A DNA stretch of 63,815 nucleotides, counting the filler, from Reclinomonas americana ATCC 50394 (Eukaryota), in assembly GCA_048213135.1 (NCBI GenBank). It is 20 parts of 20 records of this genome, joined end to end, with 100 filler letters (N's around TTAATTAATTAA, not from the genome) between each part and the next. Parts side by side here need not be neighbours in the genome. Positions count along the whole stretch, not along the records: positions 13,957 to 17,805 come from AFZH01018628.1; positions 17,906 to 19,406 come from AFZH01018629.1; positions 19,507 to 24,879 come from AFZH01018631.1; positions 24,980 to 29,871 come from AFZH01018632.1; positions 29,972 to 33,057 come from AFZH01018634.1; positions 33,158 to 34,203 come from AFZH01018635.1; positions 34,304 to 38,642 come from AFZH01018637.1; 13 more parts are not named here. The stretch is one strand, 5' to 3'. Below are positions 1,571 to 63,739 of the stretch, piece after piece (positions within the stretch are counted from its first letter, which is position 1; each line of letters opens with the position of its first letter). The translations under genes and the position numbers were made by a program. A model generated the notes under the pieces. That model was not told the DNA's origin. It was given only the letters and a program-made list of their open reading frames with translations, and ran no database searches.

Positions 1571-13599
<12,029 letters not shown>

Positions 13600-13956
13600 C
13601 TGCATGGAGGGAGGCGGTGAGGGGAAAGGGGAAGGAAAAGGGAAAAGGAACAGGGGATGGAACTGGGGGGAAGGAACAGGGGAAAGGAACAGGGGAAAGG
13701 AGCAGGGGAAAGGAAGAGGGGGAGAAAGGAACATGTGGGAAGGAGAAAGGAACATGTGGGAAGGAGAAGAGGGAAGGAACAGGGGGGATGGAACAGGGGG
13801 AAGGAACAGGGGGGAGGAACAGGTGGGAAGGAACAGGGGGAAGGAACAGCGGGAAGNNNNNNNNNNNNNNNNNNNNNNNNNNNNNNNNNNNNNNNNNNNN
13901 TTAATTAATTAANNNNNNNNNNNNNNNNNNNNNNNNNNNNNNNNNNNNNNNNNNNN

Positions 13957-14325
13957 CTTGTCCTGACTCCCAGTGACGACGTGCAGCCCGTCGGGTGTCA
14001 CGGCGACAGTCCGCACAAGGTCCGTGTGTCCCTTCATCACCCGCACTTGGCCGCCACTCGTCAGAGACCACACTCGCACTGTGTTGTCACTGCTGCCACT
14101 CACGACATGCTCGCCATCGGGAGTGACGGCGACAGAGTGCACTGGCGCAAGGTGGCCTTTCAACTGTCGCACCTCCTCGCCACTCACCAGTGACCACACT
14201 CGCACCTCGTGATCGTTACTTGCACTGACAAGGTGACGACCGTCGGGAGTAAAGGCGACAGAGAACACGTAGCCGTAGTGACCCCACAGGCGCTTACACA
14301 GGAAAGAGGGAGCGGGGTGTGACAT
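13957..14325 (-). CDS. HET-E-like WD40 repeat protein, copy A (3' part lost in gap)
   Basis: MSHPAPSFLCKRLWGH followed by 42-aa GH..V.SVA.TPDG.H.VSGS.D.TVRVWSL repeats; no intron. Confidence 0.9.
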
Positions 14326-14707
14326 GCGTGCAAGGGGGAAGGGAGAGAGGGGGGAGCAGGGAGAAAGCGCTCGCAACTACGTAAGAATGGAGGAGATGAA
14401 GGACGAACTTCGCAGAAGGGCACTTCCTTGACCATGACACAAACAACAGTGTGGTGGCGGTGCGCATCGTCACCTGGTTCTCTACAGAGCTATACACACA
14501 GCAGAAACGCGACGTTCATTTCAAATAAACGGGGCTGCAGCCTCCTGTGCCACTGCCTCGCATGCGCACGTACAATGTGGGAAGGGATTTGATGCACCAC
14601 AAGCTCAATCTCGTCAACAATGAAGCACGCAGCACTGCACAGTGGAGAGAGGAAGATCACGCTGGAAAGGAGAAGACACAGGAGCTGCAGTCTCCTGCAT
14701 CAACGCC

Positions 14708-15799
14708 TCACATATACAATGCTGGATCGGCTCGGCATCGATACACCTCGACTTCAGCCTGCTCGACAATGAAGCAACGCAGCACCATCTCCGGCAAGCA
14801 TCGCGAACCCTTCTCGCCCCTGCCGCGCTCGCGTCGCTGCATCTCTTGCACAACACGCAAGGCCTCGCGAGCTTTGTCGAGCTCCAGGCGGGCGAGACCG
14901 AGGGGCGTGGACCACACTCGCACCGTTTTATCAAGACTGCCACCCATAATGTTCTGACCGTCGGCAGTGACGGCCAGAGAGAGCACGCCGCCCGCATGCT
15001 CCTCCAACCGTCGCACCTCCTCGCCACTCGTCGACGACCACACGCGCACTGTGCAATCCTCGCTGCCGCTTACAATGTGCTGACCAGAGGGGGTGACGGC
15101 GACGGACAACACGTAGTGCGTGTGCCGCTCCAATCGACGCACCTCCTCGCCACTTGCCAGTGACCACACTCGCACAGTTGCGTCCATACTCCCACTGACA
15201 ACAAGGCGCCCATCGGAAGTGACGGCGACAGCGTTCACCCAATCCGTGTGACCGCGCAACCGTCGCACCTGCTTCCCTGTCGCCAGCGACCACACACGCA
15301 CCGACTCGTCCGTGCTGCCACTGACAATGTGCTCACTGTCGGGAGTGACAGCGACAGAGCGCACAGCGCCAGAGTGCCCCTCACACTGTCGAACGTACTT
15401 GCCACTCTCCAGTGACCACACGCGCACTGTCTTGTCAGCGTTCCCACTCACCACATGCCGACCGTCGGGAGTGATGGCGACAGAGTGCACCCAGCCAGTG
15501 TGTCTCTTCAACTGTTGCACCTCCTCGCCACTCGCCAGTGACCACACTCGTATTGTGGTGTCACGACTCCCGCTCACGATGTGCTGACCATCGGGGGTGA
15601 TGGCCACAGTTGTCACCTCGCTTGTGTGCCCCTCCAGTCGTTGCAATTCTTGCCCACTCGCCAGCGACCACACTCGCACAGTCTTGTCACCGCTCGCGCT
15701 CACACAATGCCGGCCGTCGGGGGTGACGGCGACAGAGAAGACGTAGCCGGAGTGACCCCGCAGGCACTTGGAGAGGAGAGGGGGGGCGGGGTGAGACAT
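14708..15799 (-). CDS. HET-E-like 7xWD40 protein with conserved C-terminal tail, copy B (363 aa)
   Basis: Intact single-exon ORF with 7 WD repeats, then GLARLELDKAREALRVVQEMQ...SRCLPEMVLRCFIVEQAEVEVYRCRADPALYM. Confidence 0.93.
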   Translation of the reverse strand: MSHPAPPLLSKCLRGHSGYVFSVAVTPDGRHCVSASGDKTVRVWSLASGQELQRLEGHTSEVTTVAITPDGQHIVSGSRDTTIRVWSLASGEEVQQLKRHTGWVHSVAITPDGRHVVSGNADKTVRVWSLESGKYVRQCEGHSGAVRSVAVTPDSEHIVSGSTDESVRVWSLATGKQVRRLRGHTDWVNAVAVTSDGRLVVSGSMDATVRVWSLASGEEVRRLERHTHYVLSVAVTPSGQHIVSGSEDCTVRVWSSTSGEEVRRLEEHAGGVLSLAVTADGQNIMGGSLDKTVRVWSTPLGLARLELDKAREALRVVQEMQRRERGRGEKGSRCLPEMVLRCFIVEQAEVEVYRCRADPALYM

Positions 15800-16100
15800 G
15801 TGAGAGGGGGAGAGGGAAGGGCAATCGGAGGACGAACTTCGCGGACTGCGGTGCTCTCGCGTCGCGATCCCGTTGGCCGTGGAGCAGGGCAGGCGGAGCT
15901 TGTCATTACTGAGCGTTCTACAGAGCTACAAGCAAGAAGCAGGCGGTGACGCTGAGTACACTGGTTTATTCCGATGTTGGCGGCCCCGATTCGAAGTGGT
16001 CGAGGGAGGAAGAAAGGAGAGGAAAACGGGAACGCTTGTGCTGGCAGAACAAGGCTTGTCAGAGGCAGCAACGCCCCAAGCGAAACGAAAAGAAGAAACG
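15800..16100 (-). promoter_or_regulatory. Conserved upstream cassette of the WD40 array (also ~17330-17720, ~18625-19100, ~19112-19350, diverged ~14330-14540)
   Basis: Shared blocks on the + strand upstream of each ATG: ggacgaactt, gagtgttctacagagct, ctggtttattcc, cccgattcga, agaggcagcaacgccccaagcgaaac. The regulatory role is inferred from position only. Confidence 0.6.
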
Positions 16101-16227
16101 TCAGATACTTAGCAGTACAAAGTAGAGATGGAGAGAGACAGAGAGATAGAAACAATTGCGTTCCACCCTTGCAGCAACACTAATGAAAAGACAGCTGCAT
16201 GACGCTGCAGCTTCTTGTGCCATCGCC

Positions 16228-17328
16228 TCACAGATACAACGCGGGATCCATACGGTATCGGCGAACCACGACCTCAGCCTCCTCAACCATAAAGCACCGC
16301 AGCACCATCTCCGGCAAGCATCGCGAATCCGTTTGCTCGTCTTCTGCATCGCCGCGTTGCTGCATCTCCTGCACAGCCTGCATGGCCGAGCGTGCGGCGT
16401 TGAGCTCGGAGCCGGCGAGACCACACGCGGTGGACCACACACAAATAGTCTTGTCGTCACTGCCACTCACTATGCGCTGGCCATCGGAAGTGACGGCGAC
16501 AGAGTATGCCCATCCAGTGTGTCCCTCCAACCGCCGCACCTTCTTCCCCGTCGCCAGCGACCACACGCGCACTACGTTATCACAGCTGCCGCTCACAATG
16601 TGTTGCCCGTCGGGAGTGACGGCGACTGAGTTCGCCTCCGTCATGCCGAAGTCTCCCTTCAACCGTCGCACCACCTCCCCAGTCGCCCGCGACCACACGC
16701 GCACTGTGTTATCCCAGCTGCCGCTCACAATGTGCTGTCCGTCAGCAGAGACGGCGACACAGCACACCCACCCGTTGTGTCCACGCAGCTGATGCACCTC
16801 CTCGCCACTCGCCAGTGACCACACTCGCACAGTTTCATCTGCACTGCCACTGACGACGTGCTCACCATCGCGAGAGACAGCGATAGAGTGTACCACATCC
16901 GTGTGCCCTTGCAGTCGTCGCACCTCCTCGCCACTCGCGAGCGACCACACGAGCACCGCGCCATCATTACTTTCGCTCACAATATGCGCGCCATCAGGGG
17001 TGACAGCGACAGATCGCACCCAGTCAGTGTGCCCGCTCCACCGTCGCACCTCCCGCCCACTTGCGAGTGACCACACTCGCACAGTGCCATCATTGCTACC
17101 ACTGACAACATGCTGACTATCAGAGGTCATAGCGAGACAGGTCACTGCGCCAGTGTGTCCCTCCAGTCGTCGCACCTCTTGCCCACTCGTGAGTGACCAT
17201 ACAATCACTATCATGTCGTCACCGCCACTGGCAAGGTGAGCGTCATCGGGAGAGACGGCAATGCAGTACACCAACGAGGTGTGTCCACGCAGGCATTTGC
17301 AGAGGAAGGAGGGAGCGGTGTGAGACAT
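16228..17328 (-). CDS. HET-E-like 7xWD40 protein with conserved tail, copy C
   Basis: ATG at 17328 (MSHTAPSFLCK) aligns with the paralog starts. Tail reads CGLAGSELNAARSAMQAVQEMQ...DSRCLPEMVLRCFMVEEAEVVVRRYRMDPALYL. Confidence 0.93.
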   Translation of the reverse strand: MSHTAPSFLCKCLRGHTSLVYCIAVSPDDAHLASGGDDMIVIVWSLTSGQEVRRLEGHTGAVTCLAMTSDSQHVVSGSNDGTVRVWSLASGREVRRWSGHTDWVRSVAVTPDGAHIVSESNDGAVLVWSLASGEEVRRLQGHTDVVHSIAVSRDGEHVVSGSADETVRVWSLASGEEVHQLRGHNGWVCCVAVSADGQHIVSGSWDNTVRVWSRATGEVVRRLKGDFGMTEANSVAVTPDGQHIVSGSCDNVVRVWSLATGKKVRRLEGHTGWAYSVAVTSDGQRIVSGSDDKTICVWSTACGLAGSELNAARSAMQAVQEMQQRGDAEDEQTDSRCLPEMVLRCFMVEEAEVVVRRYRMDPALYL

Positions 17329-17734
17329 GTGAGAGGGGGAAGGGGAGGGAAGGGGGAAGGGAAGGGAGGGAGGGAGGAGAGGAACTCGGCGTTCAACGAA
17401 GCAAAAAGAACGGAGACGATCGCGAGGACGAGGACGAACTTGAGAGAACGGGGTTCCTGCATCGCGATTCCGTTGGGCGCAGGCGGCGCTTGTCATCGCT
17501 GAGTGTTCTACAGAGCTGCAAAGCAAGAAGAGACAGGCGGTGACGCTGAGTACACTGGTTTATTCCGAAGTTGGCGGCCCCGATTCGAAGTGGTAGAGGG
17601 AGGAAGAAAGGAGAGGAAAACGGGAACGCTTATGCTGGCAGAACAAGGCTTGTCAGAGGCAGCAACGCCCCAAGCGAAACCAAAAGAAGCACAGAACCCC
17701 GAGGAAAAGAAACATTGGAAATGACTCGACAGTC

Positions 17735-17775
<41 letters not shown>

Positions 17776-17905
17776 GACCACCCTTGCAGACGACACTAAT
17801 AGAAANNNNNNNNNNNNNNNNNNNNNNNNNNNNNNNNNNNNNNNNNNNNTTAATTAATTAANNNNNNNNNNNNNNNNNNNNNNNNNNNNNNNNNNNNNNN
17901 NNNNN

Positions 17906-18622
17906 GGGAGTGACGGCCACAGACGCCACCGTAGCATTGTGTCCCTCCAACCGTCGCACTTCTTCACCACTCGCCAGTGACCACACGCGCACTGTGCCGT
18001 CACAGCTGCCGCTCACAATAAAGCGACTGTCGGGGGTGACGGCGACAGCGTCCACCCGCTCAGCGTGTCCCTCCATCCGTCGCACCTCCTGCCCACTCTC
18101 CAGTGACCACACGCGCACTGTCTTGTCACTGCTGCCACTCACAACATGCAGTCCGTCAGCTGAGACGGCGACAGAGCGCACCGCATCCGTGTGCCCTTCC
18201 ATCCGGTGCTCTTGCACGCCATTCTCCAGTGAGAACACGCGCACCGTCCAGTCAACACTCCCACTCACAGCGTGTCGATCGTCGGGTGTGATGGCGACAG
18301 ACAGCACCCCGGCAGGGTGTCCCTCCGGATCCAGCCAGAGTATCTCCGCACCACTCGCCAGTGACCACACTCGCACTGTGCCATCATTGCCTCCACTCAC
18401 AATGTACTGACCGTCGAGTGTGATGGCCACTGATCGCACCCAGCTTAGGTGCCCATGCAGTCGTCGCACCTCCTCCCCCCGCGCCAGTGACCAAACGCGA
18501 ATCGTGGTGTCGAGGCCACCACTCACAATGTGTTGACCGTCGGGAGTGATGGCGACGGAGAGCACGAAGCCAGTGTGTCCACGAATGGACTTGCAGAGGA
18601 AGGGGGGAGTGGGGTGAGACAT
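17906..18622 (-). CDS. HET-E-like WD40 protein, copy D (3' part in gap)
   Basis: MSHPTPPFLCKSIRGH plus more than 5 WD repeats. The family 3'-flank motif (ccacccttgcag..acactaat) reappears at 17778-17805 across the gap. Confidence 0.9.
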
Positions 18623-18819
18623 TTGATGAGAGGGCGGGAGGGGGGAGGAAAGGGAAGAGCAGTGTGAACTGAGGACGAGGACGAACTTCTCCGAAGGGGG
18701 TTCTCGTGTCGCGATTCAGGTGGCCTTGGTAACAGGGCAGGCGGCGCGTGTCATCACTGAGTGCTCTACGGTGTTGCACAGCAAGAAGAAACACGCAGTG
18801 ACGAACTATTCTGGTTTAT

Positions 18820-18999
18820 TTGTTTGATTGGCTTTAAATTTGTCTCCTGAAAGGGAAGATGACTGTTGGAGAAGTAATTATGTGTTTGTATATTGGTGTG
18901 CCAAGGTCATTGTCGGCAAGGGATTTGTGGGCGTTTGTTGCATTACTGGAATGTGGTGAATGAAGTGTTTTGTGTGCGATGACATCGCAGCGATTTCAC
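18820..18999 (+). mobile_element. ~170-bp dispersed element inserted in a WD40 upstream cassette
   Basis: It interrupts the cassette after ctggtttatt and is absent from the paralogous cassettes. A reverse-complement homolog lies at ~47441-47603. Confidence 0.65.
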
Positions 19000-19351
19000 A
19001 ACGGCCCAATTCAGAGTGGGGAAGGGAGGAAAGGAGCATAAGTGCGCAGTCACCACAGCAACATCCCAAGTGAAACGAAAGGAAGCACAGCAACCCAAGG
19101 CAAAGAAACATGGCAGGGCAGGCGGCGCGTACATCACTGAGTGTTCTGCAGAGCTGTAACGCAAGAGCGGAAACGCGACGAACACTTGTTTATTCCGGAG
19201 ACACGAAAAGGCCCCGATTCGACGTGGTCGAGGGGAGAAGAAAGGAGAGGAAAAAGAGAACGTTGTGCAGAGGCAGCAACGCCCCAAGCGAAACGAAAGG
19301 AAGCACAGTAACTCAAGGAAAAGAAACATGGAAAATGACTCGGCAGTGAAG

Positions 19352-19404
<53 letters not shown>

Positions 19405-19930
19405 GTNNNNNNNNNNNNNNNNNNNNNNNNNNNNNNNNNNNNNNNNNNNNTTAATTAATTAANNNNNNNNNNNNNNNNNNNNNNNNNNNNNNNNNNNNNN
19501 NNNNNNGTAGGAGGAGAGAGACAGACAGATAGAGAGAGAGAGAGAGAGAGAGAGTGAGGAGGGGACGCAACAAGGCGCACTGCAGAGGTTGCAGATTGCA
19601 ACAAGAGAGAGACAGACAGCTGGAGGGAGAGAGAGAAGGAGACAGGGAGAAACGATGGCAGACAAGCAATCAGACAGAGAAGAGAGACTGGGAGAGAGAG
19701 AGGCAAGGAGGAAACAAGGAGTGCTGCAGAGGTTGCAGACAGTAGGAAGAGAGAGAAACGAAAGATAAGCAGAGTAGGTGAGAAAGAACGTGAATGGAAG
19801 AGATGCAATAGGGAGAATGGCAGAAGTTGCTGACTGCGGAGGGCAGAGTGTATCGTCTCCCTTCCGCCTCCTCTCTTCTCCCCTCTGTCCATCCCTTTCC
19901 CTTCATTGACCACATCCTCCCACACCCACA

Positions 19931-21798
19931 GAGAACTGCTGTAGAGTCATTGGGCACAAGCTGCGCGACTGCTGTCGCTGCTGCTGCCTCTGCATCGGCT
20001 ACTCCTGCAAGCAAGCGTGGTGTGGCGTGTGCTTGGCGGTGAGGGACCGCAAGGCGGCTCTGCGGAGTGAGCGCGATAGTAAGCACGATTTGTGGGAGCG
20101 TGAGAGACAACGTGAGGCGCTGGAGGCCATGCAGCATGCAAGGTAAGTTGAGGGAGAGGGAAAGAGAGCGGGGTGGGGGTGGTACATCGCCCATCCCTCC
20201 CTTCCCCTTCTATCCCGCGCGCTCACGCAGAGTGTTTGTGCGCTGTTAATGTTTACGTAAGAGAGCACAGCACGAGAGAGAGACAAGAGAGAAGTATGTG
20301 TATGATGCTCGTTCTACTCTTCCACGGTTCTCTCTGTCTCCTTCGCTCTCATCCAGTTACGAGTCTCTTTCTCTCTCCCTTCTTCATATGTCTTTCTCTC
20401 TCTCTCTCTCGCTCGCTCTCTGTCGTGATGATTGCAATAGCTCTCCAGTTGTCTATTGCCTGCCCTTCTTGTTCTCCTCCGCCACTCATTACGCTAAGCG
20501 CGTGCTGATCGCGAATGGTCGGGCTGCGTTTGAAAACAGGGCTTCGGTGTCTTTTTCTCTCTTTCCCTCTCTCATCTCTCTCTTTCTCTCTCTCATCTCT
20601 CTCTCTCTCTCTCTCTCTTGCGTGCTGGTTGCAACAGTACCAGTTGTTTATTGCCTGCCTTTCTTGTTCTCCTCTGCCACTCATTACGCCAAGCGCGTGC
20701 TAATCACAAGTGACTCGACTGCGTTTGAAAACAGAGCTTCGATGTCTTTCTATCTTTCTCTCTTTCTCGGTCTCTTCGCTTTCTCTTCTCTCTCTCTCTC
20801 TCTTGCGTGCTGGTTGCAACAGTACTTCAGTTGTCTATTACCTGCCGTTCTTGTCCACCTCTGCCTCTCGTTAGCGTGCTGATCGCGAATGGTTGGGCTG
20901 CGTTGAAACAGAGCTCCTGTGTGTGTGTGTGTGTGTGTGTGTCTCTCTCTCTCTCTCTCCTCTCTCTTTCTCTCTCTCTCTCTCAGTCTCAGTCTCTCTC
21001 TCTCTCTCTCCTCTCCCCTCTCTCTTTCTTGCTTTCTCTTCCTCTCGGGCCAACTGATCACATTCTTGATTTGGTTCTCTGCTCTTACGCTCTCCTCTTC
21101 TCGTCTTCCATTTGCGCTGGTCCGGCCCCCCTCGCTGATCCTGGCTCTTTGCCTTCACCACCACAGAGAAATGTTCCACTCCATCCCTCCCCCAGCCTTC
21201 GATGTGCGATTATTCATCCAGGACGACCTGGAAGATCAACCAGGCCGTGCATTGGTCCGTCTCTGCGTGGCTCCTGTGCTCTCCCCTTATCCCTAGCTCA
21301 GTTCCCTGCATCCCGCTATTGCAGTTTTTCCGCGACAAGGTACCGGACAACTACGTGCATATGAAACTGGTGCAGCCAACGCACTTTGACGCCGCCATTG
21401 CGAGGTGGAAAGATCAGAAGGCTCTGGCTGCTGCCTCGGCGGCGTCGGCCTCCGGGTCGCCCTCTGCAGCGGCGGATGCCGCGAGTGAGGACAGCGGGCG
21501 GGGCGTGGGTGCGTCATTACCTGTGGCGGCGTCGTCGGCGCCGAGATTACCGTCGTTGCCATTGTCGCCGCAGAGGAGTGGTCGGGAGGCAGGTGAGTGG
21601 GAAAGGGGGAGGGGGGGAGAGGGGGAGGGAGAGAGAAGAAGAAGAAGAAGACGGGAAGGAGGAAAAATGTGGCCTGCTGTGTGTGTGTGAGAGAGAGAGA
21701 GAGTGCGTGTGTGTATTAGTGTATCACCTGGGTATGGGATGCATACTTGGCGATTGTCTGTTTGTTCGTTTCACTGTTTCCGTTCGGTCGTGTCGTTG

Positions 21799-21848
<50 letters not shown>

Positions 21849-22905
21849 AATGGTTATTGTTCTCAATCCGAGAACATTTTTAGTTATGGACTTTGTTCCT
21901 CTTTCCCTGCACTTACTCGTGTCATTAATCTTTCGTGTCTTCTCCGTGCGACTGCATTTGCGCATGCAGGGTGCTTTACCAGCAACCTTCCTCTCTCCTC
22001 ATTGTGCCAACAGTTTGGCATTGTGAGCTGCTGTTCCTCCTTCCATGCACATTCTTGTGCCATTCTCCTGTTAACCGCGATCCTTTCAGGCACTTGTTCA
22101 TGCCAGTGCTCCATTTCTCTCCTCTCTGCAAGGGAATGCGTTCCTTCCTTCGAAAGCATGCTCCCTTCTGTCTCCTCACTGCGAGTGCATCTGTGGTTGC
22201 GTATTCTGTGTTTCACCTTTCGCGCACTTTCTTGTGCCTTGGAAAGCTGCTCCGTTCTTCAAGTTTTGAGTTCCATTTAGGCACTGTTCATGCCAATGCT
22301 CTATTTTTCTTCTCCCTGCGTGGGCATGTTTTCCTTCCTTCGAGTGCATGCTCATGCCAACAACCCTCTGTCTCCTCACTGCGAGTGCGTTGGTTGCTGT
22401 GGACTTTCGTGCCTCCTTTGTACACACTCGCGCTGGTACTCCTCCTTTCGAGTGCATTGTGGTTGTTGATTTATGTCTCTCTTTCATGCGCTTGTTTCTT
22501 CCTCTCCTCCCTGCGAGTGCATCCGCAGTTGTGAAAACTTGTGCTCCTCCCTTCGTGCACTTATTCGCCATAATTATCTTCTCCCCCTTTCCGTTCAATC
22601 TCCCCCTTCCCCTCCCCCCACCAGCCCCCCCACCCCTAGCCACCCCCCTCTCCCCCTCCGCCGTGGAGACCACTCTGCTGCCGTCACCACCCGCTGGCCC
22701 ATCGGCTTCCGCCGTATCCCCACAATCGGCTCGTTTCGCACGAGCCGCCCACCGTGATGATGGGCACGCACCATCACGATCGTTTGTGGCCTCGCAATCG
22801 CCGGCCGCAGCACCTACCTCACCGCTTTCCTCCTCCGAATTACCGGGGCAAGTGGAGGAGCCGTCGTCTCCGCCTCCGCTGTCCGACGCCGACAGCGCTG
22901 TTTAA
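19931..22905 (+). CDS. Uncharacterised multi-exon gene with a cysteine-string exon
   Basis: AG/GT-bounded exons NCCRVIGHKLRDCCRCCCLCIGYSCKQAWCGVCLA (~19931-20038) and FFRDKVPDNYVHMKLVQPTHFDAAIARW (~21325-21592), and an S/P-rich last exon ending at 22905. Exon connections are uncertain. Confidence 0.45.
20435..20920. repeat. Three ~185-bp tandem units separated by (CT)n
   Basis: cagttgtctattgcctgcc...gcgtgctgatcgcgaatggt..gggctgcgtt.gaaa.cag.gct occurs three times. Confidence 0.85.
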
Positions 22906-22978
22906 GTCATCCACACACAAAGAGCACACACACGACCTAATGAATGTGTGTTTTAATTGTTTATCTGAAGAAAACCAA

Positions 22979-24207
22979 TTAGGCGCCGCCGCCGCCGCCG
23001 CCGCCACCCGTGATAGGAATGTCGACTCCGGAGACCATGCTGGCGTCGGCGCTGAGCAAGAATGTTACGACGGCGGCCACCTGCACGTGGAGTTTGGGGT
23101 GAGACGAGCAATGGTTGCTGGAAGAGGGGAATCCACGCAACATCGGCGGGTTCGCCATGGATGCTCGCCTGGGGTGCCCGAGGAAGGAGTGAGTGGGATG
23201 CGATGCAATGTATGAGATGAATGGGCACGCTCTCACCGCTGGGCTCACGCAATTCACGCGCACATTCGCCGCCGCCAGCTCCCGGGCCGATTGACGCGTA
23301 ATGTCGGTGACCGCCGCGTGCGCTGCATGAGCATGCGCAGGATCTGCTGTTCCCACGGAAATGCAGTTCACAATGGCGCCACCGATGCCTTGCTCCTGAA
23401 ACATGCGCTCGGCGGCTCGCATGATGAGGTGCAGGCCGAGAGTGCTGTCGTCGTCGACGACTGGAGGGGGAAGGGGGTTCTGTGGTTCTTTGGCGGGTAG
23501 TGTTGGCTGGACGGCGGGGGTGACTGCGGTGTCAAGTACTACGCGCAGCAACATATCAGCTTATGCACATCCCCAACCCCACAAAGAATCAAATGCACCT
23601 GCATTAATGAACACGGCGTCGACTCGTTTGAATGCGTGCAAGGCGGTGGCGAAAAGTTCCTGTGACCGGCATGTGAGATGCATGGAGGGGGACCCAGGTG
23701 GAGGGGAAGGGAGAGAGAGAGAGAGAGAGCTACACGGAAGGGATAAGGGGTGAGTGCCAACAGGGCAAGGGGGGCGGGGGCGATTGGATAAGTGAGAAGG
23801 GAGAGAAGAGTGGATACAGGGGATGGGAGAGAAGAGTGGATACAGGGGAAGTGACGGAGAATGCACTGTCGAACAGGAGTGTGACGCCACGTGCCATCAA
23901 CACTTTCTCTCGTTATCTTCCCTCTATTCTCAACCCTTTTCCCCCGCACTCACCTTCACGTCGGTTTCCTTGCGCATGTCGACCACCACCGGGAGTGCGC
24001 GGCCGTGGCTCGACAAAATGGCACACTCGCGCACCAGCAGCTCCAGAGGTTCCAGTTGTGCGTCGGCAACGACCTGCGAACACAGAGGAGTTATGGGGGG
24101 GAGGAGGAGGAGGAGGAGGAGGATGAAGAGTGACAAACCACTCGGGCTCCCTCAGCAGCGAGGCGGAGCGCAGTGGAGCGGCCGATGGGGCTCGCGGCGC
24201 AGGTGAC
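22979..24207 (-). CDS. Short-chain dehydrogenase/reductase-like protein with atypical motifs
   Basis: Spliced exons VTCAASPIGRSTALRLAAEGARV|VVAD...DMRKETDVK|ELFATALHAFKRVDAVFINA|...GAIVNCIS...NVRVNCVSPA|ASIHGEPAD|VAAVVTFLLSADASMVSGVDIPITGG follow the classical SDR layout. Confidence 0.85.
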
Positions 24208-24979
24208 CTGCGATGAGGGAGAAGGGAAGGAGGGAATGAGAGAGAAGGGAGGGAGAGTGAGCCTCATGCACTCTTCGCTCCACAGCATCAAGGTCCGTCC
24301 CCAAAGATCACACTCTTGCTGCATCCCTCCACAAACATGCCTTCCTCTATCGCATCTCATGCACTCTCCGTTCCTCCTTCATGCAGCCTTTCAGTCCGTC
24401 TCCAAAAGAGCGACCGCGAAGGCAACTCGCGCTCCTGGTACAGCTCTATCACGCTCTCCTTCTCTTTCTCATGTTCTCTCCATCCCTCCTCCACACAGCC
24501 TCTCAGTCCGTCTCCAAAGAAGCAACTGCATGACTCTACCTATCACGCTCTCTTTCTCTCTCCCTCTCATGGACTCTCCGTTCCACAGCCTCCCCACAGA
24601 AGCGACTGCGAAGAGCCAATCACTTCCCTACTGCCGCCCTCAACAAACACGCCTCCCTCAGTCGCGTTTACTCTCTCCCCCTCTAATGACTCAAAGGCCA
24701 TCTCCGAAGAAGCGACTTTCTCTCACACCTGCACTCGCCGTTCAATGCCTGCAAGCAGCGACTACCAAGTGCCCCTTGCTCTCTCTCTCTCTCTCTCACT
24801 CTCTCTCGTGCACTCGCCATTTAATGCCTGAAAGCAAGGGACAGTCAAGTGCCCCATGCCTCTTCTCTCTTTCTCTCTCNNNNNNNNNNNNNNNNNNNNN
24901 NNNNNNNNNNNNNNNNNNNNNNNTTAATTAATTAANNNNNNNNNNNNNNNNNNNNNNNNNNNNNNNNNNNNNNNNNNNN

Positions 24980-25011
<32 letters not shown>

Positions 25012-25553
25012 CTCCCTCCTCCTCCTCCTCTCTCTCCTCCTCTCTCTCTCTCTCTCTCTCCCTCCCTTCCCTTCCCTGCCCTGCCCTTTACCTCTCCCCT
25101 CCCTCTTTCCCCACTCAACAACAACAGTGGCCCCAAAGAACCGATGATCCGCATGCATCCGCTTCCATCGCGACGCCGACGCCGCCAATGGTGATCCCAT
25201 CAACAACGACACTCGCGACGCCCCAAACGCATCCTCGCGCAAGTCACTCTCCGACAGCGATGGTCTCATCACTGACAACAAAGACGATGCTTTTTCATGC
25301 TTTTCTCCTGCTGCTGCAGTGTGCTTTTCATCTGCAGGTTCTTCCGAGGAGGCAGGGATGATGATGGTGTTGCCGCTGAGAGTGGCGCCAAGGACGATGC
25401 CACCGAGGCTGCTCAGGGTGAGCAGTGGCCACAGGCGGTGGCGGAGGTGCAGCATTGAAAATCAAGTGAGTGAGCACGCAGGACTACCAAGAAACAACGA
25501 GGACGTTGAAGACGGAGCTTCCTCGGTCGACAAGCTTCTTCACTGTGCGGCTG

Positions 25554-30204
<4,651 letters not shown>

Positions 30205-30471
30205 CGATGCGTGCGACAGCTTCTGAAATCGTCCTGTGAGTCCCAAAGCCTCGCCTCCCGCTGTAATGAAAAGGAGGGCTGTCGATGAAGGTGGGAGGAG
30301 AGGCTCCCGATCGCGAATCCTGACATCGATATTAATATTTGCCAAAAACACCAACAAAACACTCCATTCACCACATTGCAATAATGCGACACCTGTCCAT
30401 TAAAGTACTCAACAGCACACGGCAATGCTCTCGTGCTGCTGGCCATGGATTGCAATGGTCACCGCAACACC

Positions 30472-31267
30472 TTACAGTGATATCTTGAAGGGCTCCGAGG
30501 TTTCGTCCACTGGCTGCGGCGTCGCCTTCTCAGGCACTCGTCGACGCGGACGCTCCCGCGCGAGAATCTCCTGATGCACAGGCTTGGAAGCGAACCACGC
30601 GCTACTATTCACACCTCGACACATCAACTCTACACGGAGGGCGCTTTCTCCGATCAAAACTCAAGTCACAAACAACATGTGCACATTTCGCCGTACCTCC
30701 CAGTCCGGCGCCAAGGACTGCGCCGCCGCCAAGCAGCTGCACTTTGGCATGCACATATTCGCCGACGCCTGCAAGCTTGTGTGCCCATATGGCAATGCCT
30801 GCGCCCACTGCAAACCCAACTACACCACCTGCGCATGCGGACACATTTACAAGCAACCAAGTGACCGAAGGACAGTGAGCGGAAGGAAAAGAAGAGTGGA
30901 TCCGGAAGAGGATGAGGCGCATGCGCTCAACAAACCAACAAGGGCGCCTTTGATAGCAAACGCTTGATCAGGATCGTGGCTCCTACGCTCACTCATTGTT
31001 CAGTGGACGTCGCGAGGCGCAACAACTCGCGCGACCACACACACACCAGGAGACAGCTCGATTAAAGGCCTCCTCGTCGCTCCACGTACACAGGTTGTAG
31101 ATCGAAGCCACAGCTCCCAAGCCAACGAATCCCGCACAGAATCCAGCGAGAGAAAAAAATCCGACAATACTTGGCGCGATAGTGTTGTCGAGCGCGGTTT
31201 GCTGTTGAGGCTGCAGCCACGGACGTCTCCATGGCCGGGATGGACATCGATCTCCGTATGTCCCCAC
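30472..31267 (-). CDS. Small glycine-zipper membrane protein gene(s), copy 1
   Basis: Peptides conserved between copies: AGFCAGFVGLGAVASIYNLCTWSDEEAF, HDPDQAFAIKGALV and GGVVGFAVGAGIAIWAHKLAG...GGGAVLGAGLG. Exon joining is uncertain. Confidence 0.5.
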
Positions 31268-32123
31268 TGCGAGCGGAATGCCGTAAAAGATGCCAGCAAG
31301 CGCGCCTGGTTGACGTCGTGAGGGGACAGGATGAGTGGGAGAAGAAGGAAGGGACAGGGGGAGGGAGGAGGAGGAGGAGGAGGAGGAGGAGGAGGAGGAG
31401 GAAGAAGAAGAAGAAGAGGAGGAGGAGGAGGAGGAGGAGGAGGAGGATCAACGTGCTTATTGAATACAAGGGGCATGATAATGAGGCGGACAGCGATTAT
31501 GATCTCTAGGGACTGCTCACTCTCTCTCTCTCTCTCTCACACATACACACGACTCTCTCAACAAACGCACCGAGAGAGCCCAAACGTCGAGCGATCTCAA
31601 AGTTCACCTGCAAGGTATGGGCACACGCGTCGGAACAAAACGCACGCGAGCGCGAGTGCGGAGGTGACGCGGGGAGTGCACTCACCACAAAGAAAGGGTG
31701 GTCGCTGAACGTGGCGAGATTCCAGAACAGCATGTTTTATTGCCTTTATTGCGATCGTCTTGCCGAACGCGTCGTTGACGGGACGATTAGATCATGAGTG
31801 GGCAAATGCGATTCATTATCACACACTGCGGAGTGCGGCATGCATCATGCACGTAGCCTTGTTGTCACATGAAATCAGTGTCTTCCTCTACCATTCACCC
31901 TTGAACCGCTGCGTGAGTGTGATCGATATCAACGTCGACGTACTTCGAATTCACGTGCACGATCGACGTCGCGCGCGATCTTTGTACAAAGGTCCACAAA
32001 TTCCTTGCCTACAGCAACTTGTCATACACCACATTAGAATAATGCGACACCTGTCCATTAAAGTACTCAACAGCACACGGCGTTGACCTCATGCTGCTGG
32101 ATTGAGATGGTCACTGCAACACC

Positions 32124-32914
32124 TTACAGTGATATCTTGAAGGGCTCCGAGGTTACGTCCACTGGTTGCGGCGTCGCCTTCTCAGGCACTCGTCGACGCG
32201 GATGCTCTCGCGCGAGAATCTCCGGATCCACAGGCTTATAAGCGAACCACGCGTCCCATTTCAAACCTCGGCACATCAACTCTGCGCTCTTGGTCAGCGA
32301 TATGCGTGCGCATTCACGTGGTGGATAGAGATGCACGCTTCGCCGTACCTCCAAGTCCAACACCGACGATGGCACCACCATACATCTGCAGGTTGGCATA
32401 TTTGCCTGCAAGCTTGTGTGTCCACATGGCAATGCCTGCGCCCACTGCAAAGCCCACCACACCACCTGCATCACCACGAAAGACACAAGGAGAATGAGAC
32501 GGACATCAGTGACCGGCTAGAGAGAGGGAGAGAGAAAGAGGGAGGGAGAGTATTTAGCGCACGCCCTCATATGTACATGCACGGGGTAACAAACCTATAA
32601 TGGCGCCTTTGAGGGCGAGGGCTTGATCTGGATCATGATCCCTGCACTCACTCATTGCAATTATTAATTGGACGCGCGAGGCGCAACAATTCGTGCGACT
32701 TGATGCACCATGAGACAGCTCGATCAAAGGCCTCCTCGTCGCTCCACATACACAGGTTGTGGATCGAAGCCGCAGCTCCCCAGCCAAAGAATCCCGCAAC
32801 GTATCCCACGAGAGACGAAGTCCCGACAATAACCGACCCGACTGCAATGTTGGCCTTGGTTCGCAAGCCATAGCGATCAAGTAAAGGACTTCTCATTTCT
32901 CTGCATGCCTGCAC
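32124..32914 (-). CDS. Small glycine-zipper membrane protein gene(s), copy 2
   Basis: VGYVAGFFGWGAAASIHNLCMWSDEEAF, HDPDQALALKGAII and GGVVGFAVGAGIAMWTHKLAG...GGAIVGVGLG. Confidence 0.5.
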
Positions 32915-35108
32915 CGCGGAAGGAATGCCGAATAGGAGAGTTGCGGTGACCGCGCCTGGTCGTGTTCGGAAGAGGTATGAGAGAGAGAGAGAGGGAGAGA
33001 GAGTGAGGGAGAGAGAGAGAGAGAGAGAGGAGGAGGAGGAGGAGGAGGAGGAGGAAANNNNNNNNNNNNNNNNNNNNNNNNNNNNNNNNNNNNNNNNNNN
33101 NTTAATTAATTAANNNNNNNNNNNNNNNNNNNNNNNNNNNNNNNNNNNNNNNNNNNNGAGAGAGAGAGGGAGAGAGAGTGAGGGAGAGAGAGAGAGAGTG
33201 AAGAGGAGGAGGAGGAGGAGGAGGAGGAGGAGGAAAAACACGATTGTTGACAGTCGGACGCGATCACTGTGCAACTCATCGGCTTACACACATATTCTCT
33301 CTCTCTTTCACACACACGACTCCCTTCAACGAACGCACCGAGAGAGCCCAATCGTCGAGCGATCTCAAAGTTTGCCTGCCGAGGCAAAGTCGGAAAAAAC
33401 AAGAGCACACACACACACACACGTGGGCAGGTGACGAGGTGACTTCACTCACCACAATGAAAGGGTGGTCGCTGAACGTGGCGAGATTCCAGAACAGCAT
33501 GACGCACTACGAGTTGGCGATCGCAATGTACGTACAAGCTCGATGATTGAAGGGTCCTGTGCGACGTCGACGTCGGTATATATCGACGTCGCAACTCCAG
33601 CGCGCGGGCTGCTCTGTCCTCATGAACGAATTCATGCACTATGGATACGCGTGTTCCGACAGTGCTTGACCGGTCTCAGGCTGCGACACTGCAGATGTCG
33701 AAGGCGCGACACTTTGCAATTGCAAGAATTCCAATTCGTTTTCCGAATTCAAAAGATCGCCCGCACGCTGCACCTCCCAGACCCGCAGCCGCACCTACAC
33801 TTTGCAGTCCTCGCCGATACCTCCATCGCCGAGCATTTCGAGCACACCTCACATTCAAAACCGACATTGTCCTTCCACGCGTCACACTTCTCATTCGCTC
33901 ACTTTGCACGCCATGGACGACCGTGAACGCCTCTTGCTCTCTGCCATGTTGCCGCGCCTGGGCGCAGCAGTGACCAGCGCATTGCCTCAGACAGGGAAGA
34001 AGGAGGTAAGTGAGACAAGAGAAGAAGATGAGTGAGAGAAGAGAGACACGCGTCTTGCACACACGTGCACATGATGTCGTTGTGTTGAGGGAGACTCTTC
34101 CTCTGTGTGAGGCGATGAAGTGTACGCGCACTGACACAAGCAGCACGCAACACACAAACACACACACACACACAAACACACAGAGAGAGAGAGTGAGAGT
34201 CACNNNNNNNNNNNNNNNNNNNNNNNNNNNNNNNNNNNNNNNNNNNNTTAATTAATTAANNNNNNNNNNNNNNNNNNNNNNNNNNNNNNNNNNNNNNNNN
34301 NNNAGGAGGGAGAAGAGAGAGCGAGAGACAGAAGAGTGAGACGTAAGAGAGAATGAGACAGAGACGAAAGAATGTGACGGAAGAGTGAGACAAAAGGGTG
34401 GAAAGGAGAGAAAGAAAGTGAGAGAGGAAGGGGACAAAGAGAAAGTGAGTGATAAGGGCCCCTTCTCGTTGATGTACATTGGTTCGTTGACCTCCCAACC
34501 AGTGGTCAGGAGGCAGCTCAGCGTCGCCCTCCCTTTTTTTACTTTCATCCCCGCGGAATGCAGTGACAAGTCCGCTCTTGCCAACAACAACAACGACAAC
34601 AATGGCGCCGATAAAGATGTAACAACAAACTCAATTCTCCTCCGGATCCACACAGCGCTAGCAATGCAGATGCGAACGTTGTACTTGTGCTGCATTGAAT
34701 TGGGCGCGAAGAGTGGAAGCCTTCAGGTGCAGTCCGATCGCGATATCAACGTCAAGAGATTGGCAGCAAAACACCGAGCCTTTTATTGATCTGGTCGCGC
34801 CCGTCACTAGTGCACATCACACCCTACATTAGCTGTGCCTTGCACTCTGGTCGCTGCACGACGTTGACACTGCGTCCTCCAAGCAATTTGATTGCCGGCT
34901 ATTCCACCTCTACTCTCTTGCATCGAGACTCGCTCTCTGTCTTTCTTTCTCTCTCGCCCTGTGTTCTCCCGCTCTCCTCCTCTCCCTCCCTCCTCTCCCT
35001 CCCTCCTCCTCTCTCTCTCTCTCTCTCCCTCCCCCCCCCCCTTCCCCTCTTTTCCCCCCTTCCCCTCTTTTCCCCCCTTCCCCTCTTTCCCCCCTTCCCC
35101 TTTCCCCC

Positions 35109-36215
35109 ATGTCAGACACTCTCTTCCTCACCACCCTCTTGACTGGCCACACCGGCTTGATCCTTTCAGTGGCCGTCTCCCCCGACGGCCGCCACATCGT
35201 GAGTGCCAGTGGCAGTGTGGATAAAACAGTTCGCGTGTGGTCACTGGCGAGTGGGCGCGAAGTGCTTCAGTTGCAGGGCCACTCGGCGAGAGTGGAGTCT
35301 GTGGCCTTCACTCCCGACTGCCAGCACATAGTCAGTGGCAGCAGGGACAAGACAGTGCGCGTGTGGTCAATGGCAAGTGGAGAGCAGGTGCGCCGCATGG
35401 ACGGGCACACCTGGGCAGTGTCATCTGTCGCCATCACTCCCGACGGGCACTACGTTGTGAGCGGAAGCAACGACAGGACGGTGCGTGTGCGGGCGCTGAC
35501 GACGGGCGCGAATGCGCAGAGGCGATTCGAGGGACACACCAACTGGGTGCGATGCGTCGCCCTCACGCCCTCTGTTCAGCACGTCGTCAGTGGGAGTGAC
35601 GATCGGACCTTGCGTGTGTGGTCGCTGGCGAGTGGCGAAGAAGTGCTGCAGTTGAACGGGCACGAGGATATGGTGTGGTCTGTCGCCGTCACTCCCGATG
35701 GCCAGCACATTGTGAGTGGAGGAGCTGACTGCACAGTGCGAGTGTGGTCGATCGAGAGTGGCGAGGAGGTGCGCCGATTGGAGGGACACGCCCATAGCGT
35801 GACGTCTGTTGCTGTCACTCCCGATGGTCAGCACATTGTCAGTGCCAGTGGCGACTCGACAATACGTGTGTGGTCACTGGCCAGTGGGAAAGAAGTGCGG
35901 CAGTTGGTGTGGCACGATGAAGAGGTGCACTGTGTCGCCATCACGCCCGACGGTCAGAGCATTGTTTGCGGTGGCTTCCAGAAGATTCGCATGTTGACGA
36001 CGCCGTGCGGTCTGGCTCGAGGCGAGCTCGACTGCGCGCGCGAGGCCATGCACGCTGTGCAAGAGATGCAGCGACAGGAAGAAGAGTCGGATTCACGATG
36101 CCTGCCGGAGTTGGTGCTGCGCTGCTTCATCGTCGAGGAGGCTGAGGTCGTGGTGTTCCGCTGTCTCGTTGATCCTGCATTACATCTGTTAGTGGGTGGT
36201 GGTGGTGCGGGGTGA
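35109..36215 (+). CDS. HET-E-like 7xWD40 protein with conserved tail, copy E (368 aa)
   Basis: Intact single-exon ORF. Tail reads CGLARGELDCAREAMHAVQEMQ...DSRCLPELVLRCFIVEEAEVVVFRCLVDPALHL. Confidence 0.93.
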   Translation: MSDTLFLTTLLTGHTGLILSVAVSPDGRHIVSASGSVDKTVRVWSLASGREVLQLQGHSARVESVAFTPDCQHIVSGSRDKTVRVWSMASGEQVRRMDGHTWAVSSVAITPDGHYVVSGSNDRTVRVRALTTGANAQRRFEGHTNWVRCVALTPSVQHVVSGSDDRTLRVWSLASGEEVLQLNGHEDMVWSVAVTPDGQHIVSGGADCTVRVWSIESGEEVRRLEGHAHSVTSVAVTPDGQHIVSASGDSTIRVWSLASGKEVRQLVWHDEEVHCVAITPDGQSIVCGGFQKIRMLTTPCGLARGELDCAREAMHAVQEMQRQEEESDSRCLPELVLRCFIVEEAEVVVFRCLVDPALHLLVGGGGAG

Positions 36216-61800: not shown

Positions 61801-62295
61801 TGTCACTCTCTCTCTCTCTCCTCTCTCTCTCTCTTCTCCCTCATTCCCCCTTTCCCCTTCCCCTCTCTCTCCCTCTCCCTCTCTGTTTCCTTGTCGACTC
61901 ACTCACATCGCTGTCGCCAGTTTGCCCAACTCCACGAAGTCAGTGTCGATAACGCTCGAGCGCGACCGGGCGTGGCCAATGGATCCGGCGGCTGGTCGTT
62001 CCATGTGAACTACACGCTGGAGCGCGAGTGGTGCGACTGTGGCGTGCGAGGTGGCGCGCACGATGCCATGGTGCAATTCGGCGACTTGTCCGTGGTGGTG
62101 GACGAGAAGGGCATGCTGGTTCACGCCTCGGGCACGTCGGCGACTGGCGACTCGGTGCAGTGGGCAGTGGAGAACGAGAGCACGCCACCGAGTACGGCCT
62201 CGCTTGGCAAGGGTGGCGCCTCGGATGGCAATGGTGTCGGCGGTGTGCGTCGTCGCTCCGCAAACCCACTGTCGAACCCAGTCGAGCCCGGTTAA
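56301..62295 (+). CDS. F-box + leucine-rich-repeat protein with a long low-complexity C-terminus (multi-exon across gaps)
   Basis: F-box WNDGLPGEVLANVFSF...LVCRFW (~56600-56705). Many LxxLDLSxNxL repeats at 57620-58697. Further in-frame exons at 59406-60036, 60201-61501 and 61921-62295. Confidence 0.78.
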
Positions 62296-62446
62296 TCCTT
62301 TTCCTTTTTGTTATCTTTGTGTAATAATGTGTGCAAGTTTTGTGTGTGTGTGTGTTCTTGTTGTTGTGCCATTACCCTCCTGTTTATGATGTTGATGTGT
62401 CTCATTATATTAGTAGAAGTACATTTTTCTTTCTTTTTCACATCAC

Positions 62447-63739
62447 TTATGGTGGTGGTGGTAGTGGTGGCTGCCGCCGACTGCGCAAGTGTGCATCTCG
62501 TTTTCGCGAGACGCTGGAGAGCCGACTGCGAATGTCGTCGGGCAGCATGCGCTGTAGCACGGCCGCCACCAGCGACGTCTCCAGATCGATTTCCACCGGC
62601 TCGCCCGCCTCCTCGGTCTGCAGTTCGCAGACAGCGGCCAGCGCGCTGTTCGCCCACGCCAGCTCCACAGTGAGAGTGTCCACTGCGCCACGGCGGAGGT
62701 GAGAGAGAGAGAGAGAGATGAAGGGTCAAGAGATGAGCAGGCGACAAACCTGGGTCCACCAGTCGGTAGACCGTCACGTCGCCAAACGTGTCGCCGACCG
62801 CCACATGCACTCCGTCGCAAGAGACCGCCATGCGATCGATCAAAAGGTCCTCCTGGAGGACAGCCACGCAACGCATGTCGGCGGCGTTCCACAACTTGAT
62901 GTTGCGGTGATTGCTGCCGGAGATCACGTAGCGCGAGTTGCACATCCACCCCAGTCCCACAATGTAGCCCTCGTGACCCTGGCCCCACTCGCCACTCCAC
63001 GCCTCGCACTCATCCGTGTCCGGATTCGTCACCGCAAAGCGGCACTGCCGCGTGGCGTGCACGGTGCATACCAGACGCGGTTGTCGCTCCGTGCTCCACG
63101 CCACCATCGTGGCGTCGCCCTCGTGCTCCGGTAGGGGCACGAGTTTCGAGGGAAACTGCTCGTCGACCACCGTGTCGTCGCCAAGCGCCCGCACACTCCA
63201 TAACCTGACGGTGCCGTCGCGCGACGCCGACGCCAGCCACACGCCGTCTGGACTGAACGCCACATCCAGCACCAAGTCGGTGTGCGCCTCCAGCCGCCGA
63301 TGCAAGCCGCGAATGGCCGCCGTCTCCGGGTCCAGCGTGAACACAAAGAGGGCGGAGGAGCGGCCGCCGGTCACCAGCCAGCAGGCGTCGGGTGACACGG
63401 CCATGCACCACATGGTCGCCGTGCGGTGGTAGTTGACGCGGTTTACCAGCACGCCTTCCTTGGCGGACAGCTGAGGGGAGGGTGAGTGAGTGGAATGAGT
63501 AGGGAGAATGATGGGGAGAGATGGGGATGCGAAACATTGTAGGAGCAGAGGGGACCGTCGGATTGGAAGGTGGTGCCGGCGCAGGCGACGATTGCGGAGT
63601 CGGAGTTGGGGACGCAGACCAGCTGTGCGAGGAGAGAAGAGAGGGATGAGAAGGGAAGGGAGAGGGAGGGAGAGGAAGCCTTTCTCACAGTTTCCACGAA
63701 ATAGTCAAAGGCAAACAGAGCAAATCGCGGGCACGACAA

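Follow-up and report, generated by a model that had tools for sequence, protein, structure and literature searches.

Reclinomonas americana ATCC 50394, a jakobid, encodes a large family of small WD40 proteins which share one C-terminal tail of about 65 residues, and five of its genes lie in the stretch of DNA analyzed here (the window: 63,815 nucleotides, filler included, joined from 20 records of assembly GCA_048213135.1). Several hundred to a thousand such proteins keep one conserved tail of two predicted helices while the top face of the propeller diversifies. Through the tail, WD40, ankyrin, and other carriers would all attach to a single partner; the most likely candidate is a subunit of a cullin ubiquitin ligase that resembles Skp1 or Elongin C, and ligands of the propeller would then be tagged for destruction. 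This combination, a recognition repertoire that diversifies around a constant docking box, is proposed only tentatively as a set of non-canonical cullin-ligase receptors. That the family serves recognition in some form, be it through a ligase, through self-association of the tail, or as part of a split NLR-like system, appears probable. The genome-wide count of the tail, its mobility, its predicted own exon, and a tail-bearing protein outside the assembly are new here.

The five window genes, c1 to c5, are open frames built of 42-residue WD40 repeats:

13957..14325, minus strand: c1, 5′ part of a family gene with about three WD40 blades (open frame, truncated by an assembly gap)
14708..15799, minus strand: c2, complete gene of 363 amino acids with seven WD40 blades and the tail (Pfam; AlphaFold2 model with a mean predicted local distance difference test (pLDDT) of 93.7)
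16228..17328, minus strand: c3, complete gene of 366 amino acids with seven WD40 blades and the tail, the latter at 16228-16437 (open frame, Pfam)
17906..18622, minus strand: c4, 5′ part of a family gene (truncated by a gap; tail supplied by contig L003)
35109..36215, plus strand: c5, complete gene of 368 amino acids with seven WD40 blades and the tail, the latter at about 35994-36215 (open frame, Pfam)

A Pfam scan of c2, c3, and c5 found the WD40 repeats and gave no match for the tail of about 65 residues. The initial annotation had placed four head-to-tail copies at 13957-18622 and a fifth at 35109, and the frames are located as claimed; the order holds because contig L003, 99% identical to c4 over 639 nt, supplies the missing tail of c4 and extends into a gene like c3. 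Its quoted tail is present in all three complete copies, and the triplets it listed as variable after GH and after SG/SA occur in c2 and c3. Protein c2 is 61-62% identical to its window paralogs. The description of these copies as single-exon genes in an intron-dense genome stands in part: the Skp1 paralogs, among other genes, are cut by many introns, and the single-exon structure itself is read from open frames alone. An in-frame ATG is missing from some family members, and introns are predicted in older paralogs.

Throughout the assembly (108 Mb, 16,441 contigs), the family is greatly expanded, as the tail count envisaged by the initial annotation confirms. All 150 candidates scored in a protein search with the c2 tail, out of 1,550, matched it. 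The DNA pattern for RCF-x-V-E-[ED]-A has 568 + 471 = 1,039 matches, compared with none for the reversed control, and two other tail patterns have 296 (control 0) and 531 (control 2). Of the tails defined by profile in two sampled sets, the first pattern finds 73 of 97 and 64 of 82, and therefore about 1,350 tails are implied. Many loci are taken here to be present twice in the assembly, since only 8 distinct sequences remain among the 13 cullin hits, and 5 of the 8 occur as pairs; dividing the tail count by 1.6 gives a haplotype-corrected estimate of roughly 650-850 loci. Among 230 distinct sampled tails, 197 follow a WD40 repeat immediately and in the same frame, 17 are fragmentary, frameshifted, or divergent, nine lie beside masked or gap bases, and seven at a locus edge. 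A start codon and seven blades are found in 121 of the 150 tail-bearing frames that could be scored after removal of 35 masked and 33 edge frames. These 121 yield 113 distinct full-length proteins of 350-373 amino acids that consist of WD40 repeats and tail, with no NACHT or effector domain. Tandem arrays are common, with family genes 1.2-1.6 kb apart, and the regions upstream of the 113 genes have only CT/CA repeats in common, with no further shared motif. Isolated, degenerate tail fragments without propellers occur between intact genes at L051:3692-4670 (+).

The structure of c2 was predicted with AlphaFold2 from the 113-row alignment. The model shows a seven-bladed propeller followed by two long helices, with block pLDDT values of 83-87 in the helices. 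The tail is thus predicted to be a helical hairpin, which maps to c2 as follows:

14708..14914, minus strand: tail module (sequence, AlphaFold2 model, conservation)
about 14822-14905, minus strand: first helix, residues 299-326 (AlphaFold2 prediction)
between the two helices: linker, acidic or charged (predicted)
about 14729-14800, minus strand: second helix, residues 334-357, which carries LPEMVLRCFIVE (AlphaFold2 prediction)

Across 37 diverse tails, L335, C342, F343, and E346 are invariant, E306, A313, V339, R341, and A348 are nearly so, and the second helix is conserved on most of its faces. Fold searches that used the full model returned lists full of propellers, with 5yzv and 2ymu at the top, and none of the structures listed matches the tail. 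Searches with the tail against Pfam (83 members), PDB sequences, and, by word search, 5.8 billion proteins returned nothing usable; nor did the ESM Atlas, where the best score (0.83) is a lead only. No tail was found in viral or metagenome contigs, and a further search gave six pattern matches with no tail-bearing frame among them.

The tail is a mobile module. Searches with a divergent tail copy and looser patterns revealed it at the C-terminal end of two tandem ankyrin proteins (L136), in which Pfam matches are confined to ankyrin families, and another contig holds two further tail copies close to those of L136. At L143:5010-5933 (+), with two tail-like propeller frames nearby, it is placed ahead of one or more MLLE domains, which link to interaction surfaces of the poly(A)-binding or HECT-ligase type. 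It is internal in a tandem, intron-bearing family of non-repeat proteins without a Pfam match (L095-L103; G000 C53, C515, C142), where a further conserved helical region follows it. Many divergent propellers also end in the tail. In 8 of 12 divergent cases, a predicted phase-1 GT-AG intron of 67-79 nt, two codons past the last WD tryptophan, restores the frame; the tail of older paralogs was therefore likely once on its own exon, as judged from sequence. In a tail tree of 67 columns, which is weak and mostly unresolved, tails of the intronless type group together (18 rows, support 88/88, not starred) within a set of divergent, mostly intron-bearing tails. The simplest history would begin with an old, exon-borne box, pass through a single intronless copy whose propeller was consensus-like, and end in tandem amplification.

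That the tail is fused to ankyrin, MLLE, and further domains strengthens the idea of an adaptor. The genome also contains cullins (13 hits over the cut-off, with 8 distinct C-termini), three Skp1 paralogs, an Elongin C-like gene with the C-terminal sequence LLLAANYLDC, and 13 F-box-like hits; a search of it with SOCS_box found no match. A lineage-specific cullin expansion is suggested by four cullin C-termini that resemble one another, two of which share a contig at a distance of 8 kb (L156, L157, L159, L160, and L161).

Several results weigh against a ligase box. An adaptor architecture does not name its partner, and none of the 83 tails matches F-box, SOCS, or PRANC in Pfam at E values up to 1, nor PRANC (PF09372) at the C-terminus. 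The tail profile compared with nine F-boxes of the organism itself gives probabilities of 0.3-0.5%. Within a set of 105 tails, the canonical BC box, (S,T,P)LxxxC/S/Axxx-hydrophobic, occurs in only four; in the RCF register, S/T/P is found at −1 in two tails and a hydrophobic residue at +8 in one. The F-box LPxE[IL] and Leu at +12 occur in 0 of 105. The predicted second helix is also unbroken over 24 residues, unlike the F-box, whose helices are short. Among the same tails, a Cul5 box is present in none, and a low-information Cul2 pattern is found in 80, with no BC box ahead of it (box consensus from PMC3355856). The F-box, SOCS, or PRANC membership suggested by the initial annotation thus finds no profile or motif support.

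What the tails do have is a hydrophobic-x-x-R-C-F core, present in 102 of 105, whose Cys is the only invariant column. Its likenesses are partial: the start of the helix, LP-x-x-hydrophobic-L-x-x-F, is as in F-box helix 1, and the core Cys is at +4, where the BC box has Cys. A presumed resemblance to WSB and VHL was compared through the published consensus alone. By sequence, the tail lies outside F-box, SOCS, and PRANC, but a similar function is possible. Skp1 binding is retained by a poxviral F-box of which only the first helix is left (PMC4353913), and the cullins of trypanosomes, which also belong to the Discoba, use extra Skp1 paralogs and kelch or LRR adaptors without an F-box (PMC12816148).

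Ligase receptors of the WSB/ASB SOCS-box and ANK-PRANC types have the same architectures, a box borne by WD40 or by ankyrin repeats (PMC3355856, PMC4353913). The receptors of Elongin BC-Cul5 likewise carry a C-terminal helical box on WD40 (WSB) and ankyrin (ASB) proteins, and the likeness extends to an invariant Cys at +4 from a hydrophobic residue and to the Elongin C-like gene of this genome; here, however, the BC-like helix is the second rather than the first, and there are hundreds of copies (PMC3355856). ANK-PRANC proteins and those with a truncated C-terminal F-box, from poxviruses and intracellular bacteria, are likewise multi-copy and ordered as repeats, helix, linker, and a C-terminal helix of the LPxx-hydrophobic type, whereas the Reclinomonas tails lack Glu at +3 and Leu at +12, are host-encoded, and are mostly found on WD40 proteins (PMC4353913). 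In Caenorhabditis elegans, F-box genes have expanded in tandem, with the box under purifying selection and the substrate domain positively selected (PMC8120010). These repertoires of hundreds of tandem paralogs share with the present family a conserved docking module and a fast-evolving binding domain, and differ in that the C-terminal box is here unrelated by sequence and its ligase binding only putative (PMC8120010).

Possible, although rather unlikely, is that the tail is a self-association or signaling module, whose hairpins dimerize, oligomerize, or dock on a non-ligase hub once the propeller has bound its ligand. The second helix of the predicted hairpin is conserved on most faces, as would be expected in four-helix-bundle dimers, and a tail that matches no known ligase box suits this model. 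However, its transfer onto ankyrin, MLLE, and non-repeat proteins is in keeping with a docking box that can be carried by many proteins and serves a single machine, and the 113 full-length proteins have no effector domain.

The propeller face, by comparison with tail and framework, changes fast. With GH at repeat positions 13-14, entropy is highest at 16, 17, 19, 35, and 37 (3.1-3.8 bits), compared with less than 1.5 bits at most framework positions; position 16 was chosen from the data themselves. Positions 17 and 19 flank V18, and 35 and 37 flank D36. The 113 genes give 56 independent pairs, of which 29 were used at a nucleotide identity of at least 80% and 43 at 70% or more. The ratio of nonsynonymous to synonymous rates (omega) in the pair analysis is 0.255 for the framework and 0.23 for the tail core, and both are under purifying selection. 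For codons 17/19/35/37, omega is 1.24 under the shared (framework) synonymous rate (p 2e-4 over the 29 independent pairs); integrating out local divergence gives 1.38 (p 4e-7), and estimates against the framework synonymous rate range from 1.24 to 1.70. A mixture model assigns about 36% of the top-face codon observations to an omega near 5, a class which the control positions 6/12/28 lack. All three bases have changed in 57 of 382 cases at the four top-face codons versus 56 of 3,731 elsewhere outside the tail (pairs of 80-90% identity). Two results speak against selection on the face. The synonymous rate at the four codons is itself raised (1.4-1.9), and once a local synonymous rate is left free, the ratio falls to about 0.9 and is not significant; in addition, a model that scales both rates beats the pure selection model (log-likelihood −1585 vs. 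−1598). The excess of nonsynonymous change expected by the initial annotation is therefore seen against framework synonymous rates and disappears against local ones, and selection retaining new top-face codons is likely, not proven.

The local ratio of about 0.9 also fits a largely neutral birth and death of a compact intronless gene, in which the fold is kept, the top face drifts, and most copies do little. Frameshifted or fragmentary copies exist, as among the 17 tails mentioned above and in the L002 copy of c2, and the evidence of expression is one expressed sequence tag (EST) from a related or identical species. Neutral amplification is nevertheless improbable, given an omega of 0.2-0.25 for tail core and framework across pairs, the 121 of 150 scorable frames that are intact, and the concentration of whole-codon replacement at four top-face codons.

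The blades themselves are mosaic. They are consensus-like, with almost no blade-specific identity, and their mean within-gene identity (amino acids, GH-to-W stretch) is 61% in c2 and 56% in both c3 and c5; over the 113 genes, it averages 57%, with a maximum of 83% and none reaching 90%, so the near-identical repeats described in the initial annotation do not hold. Gene pairs are patchy by blade, with values of 0.56-1.00 within pairs. Of 786 blades examined, 251 have a match of at least 90%, in each case (251 of 251) to the same blade of another gene. Around variable codons with multiple changes (up to three codons away), synonymous differences are 1.43-fold enriched, compared with 0.8 near unchanged ones. 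These patterns can be read as gene conversion between paralogs that keeps the blades in register and in which new top-face codons are retained preferentially. Where the initial annotation had described HET-E-like homogeneity and proposed a test for gene conversion among repeats, the observation is one of blade-scale mosaicism between paralogs.

The closest parallel for the face is provided by the HNWD/NWD proteins (HET-D, HET-E) of Podospora anserina, whose fast codons 7/9/25/27 surround positions 8 and 26 (PMC1805685). Here, positions 17/19/35/37 surround V18 and D36, also 18 codons apart, although the mapping between the two is our own, and exchange between family members is common to both (PMC1805685). 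The differences are also clear: the present family has no NACHT or HET domain and about 1,000 copies versus 10, its repeats are 57% identical versus up to 100%, and recent exchange occurs in register between paralogs, not across repeat positions (PMC1805685). The best structural matches, WRAP-type repetitive WD40 propellers (PDB 5yzv, 2ymu), likewise have consensus-like blades; these matches leave the tail uncovered, and symmetry is moderate in the present family (PMC9218822). A split NLR-like system, with propellers as free sensors that engage, through the tail, a NACHT/NB-ARC or death-effector protein encoded by another gene and HET-E as its one-chain version, is quite improbable, as the HNWD-like spacing of variable positions (PMC1805685) is set against the lack of HNWD-type repeat homogenization and the absence of NACHT/NB-ARC matches in 57 long neighboring frames scanned, from which intron-split genes could escape. 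Of the stand-alone, diversified sensor family put forward in the initial annotation, the expansion, the constant tail, the absence of NACHT, and a variable face at HNWD-selected positions remain, and the HET-E-like homogeneity and the F-box/SOCS/PRANC membership do not.

Relatives outside the assembly are few. A profile of the 83 tails found four proteins among 1.84 billion representatives (P0121-P0124). The best match and closest named relative, P0121, is named as an EST product of Reclinomonas americana and is 80% identical to the closest sampled gene of the family; at least one member is therefore transcribed in that species. P0122 and P0123 are divergent propellers with the tail, and P0124 is a fragment. 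Whole-protein searches return repetitive WD40 proteins, the 120 matches listed being 27-58% identical. One of these, P0079 (375 amino acids, on a 7.6-kb contig), is about 40% identical to the family and carries the tail, with a tail score of 25 bits compared with at most 4.9 in 1,000 shuffles. P0079 was not found in the assembly at E 1e-60 among the 109 of 3,276 candidates scored, and in prokaryote genomes it matches four loci only, at 25-32% identity and with the propeller alone covered. Its N-terminus looks signal-peptide-like by eye, although its hydrophobicity (2.26, family maximum 2.16) does not set it apart; it recalls the secreted repeat proteins which occur in Dependentiae, parasites of flagellates (PMC6561590). 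An unrelated protein, P0113, joins a Skp1/POZ-like domain to repetitive WD40 blades. A literature search, with most subscription journals outside its reach, found no description of the family.

Other features of the window include a canonical F-box at 56616-57332 (+) (LPGEVLANVF...LVCRFW), with leucine-rich-repeat frames downstream across a gap at 57629-58701 (+); the LPGEVLANVF cited for comparison in the initial annotation, at 56616, thus belongs to a full F-box. A divergent WD40 frame, with no tail in that frame, is found at 62292-63413 (−), and a long single frame of TPR_12/TPR_10 repeats at 52549-53889 (−); a similar TPR frame stands beside family genes at L078:2727-3767. Imperfect repeats at 51104-51876 (−) encode QTSELKRQNLIKPAHA-like units. 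A multi-exon gene at about 4100-13760 (−), with long Gly/Ala/Ser/Asn-rich, beta-helix-like repeats (weak NosD match) and hydrophobic segments, likely encodes a large surface protein.

Returning to the docking-box repertoire, the top face would bind ligands, perhaps foreign ones such as parasite, virus, or prey proteins, and the tail its partner. In its boldest form, which is speculative and doubtful as a whole, an undescribed ligase-docking box, neither F-box, SOCS, nor PRANC, would arm the jakobid with several hundred WD40 and ankyrin substrate receptors, their faces reshuffled by gene conversion and selection, as a cell-autonomous immune repertoire, and P0079, possibly a secreted protein, would be a parasite's mimic of the box. 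Little is known about the recognition of intracellular parasites by free-living protists, and hundreds of loci that combine a constant, mobile box with a fast-changing binding face are a direct candidate for it. If the partner is indeed a cullin ligase, the tail would be a new receptor box from the Discoba, and receptor repertoires of nematode scale would have arisen independently in a unicellular lineage; if it is not, the tail would still be a new portable interaction module at an unusual copy number.

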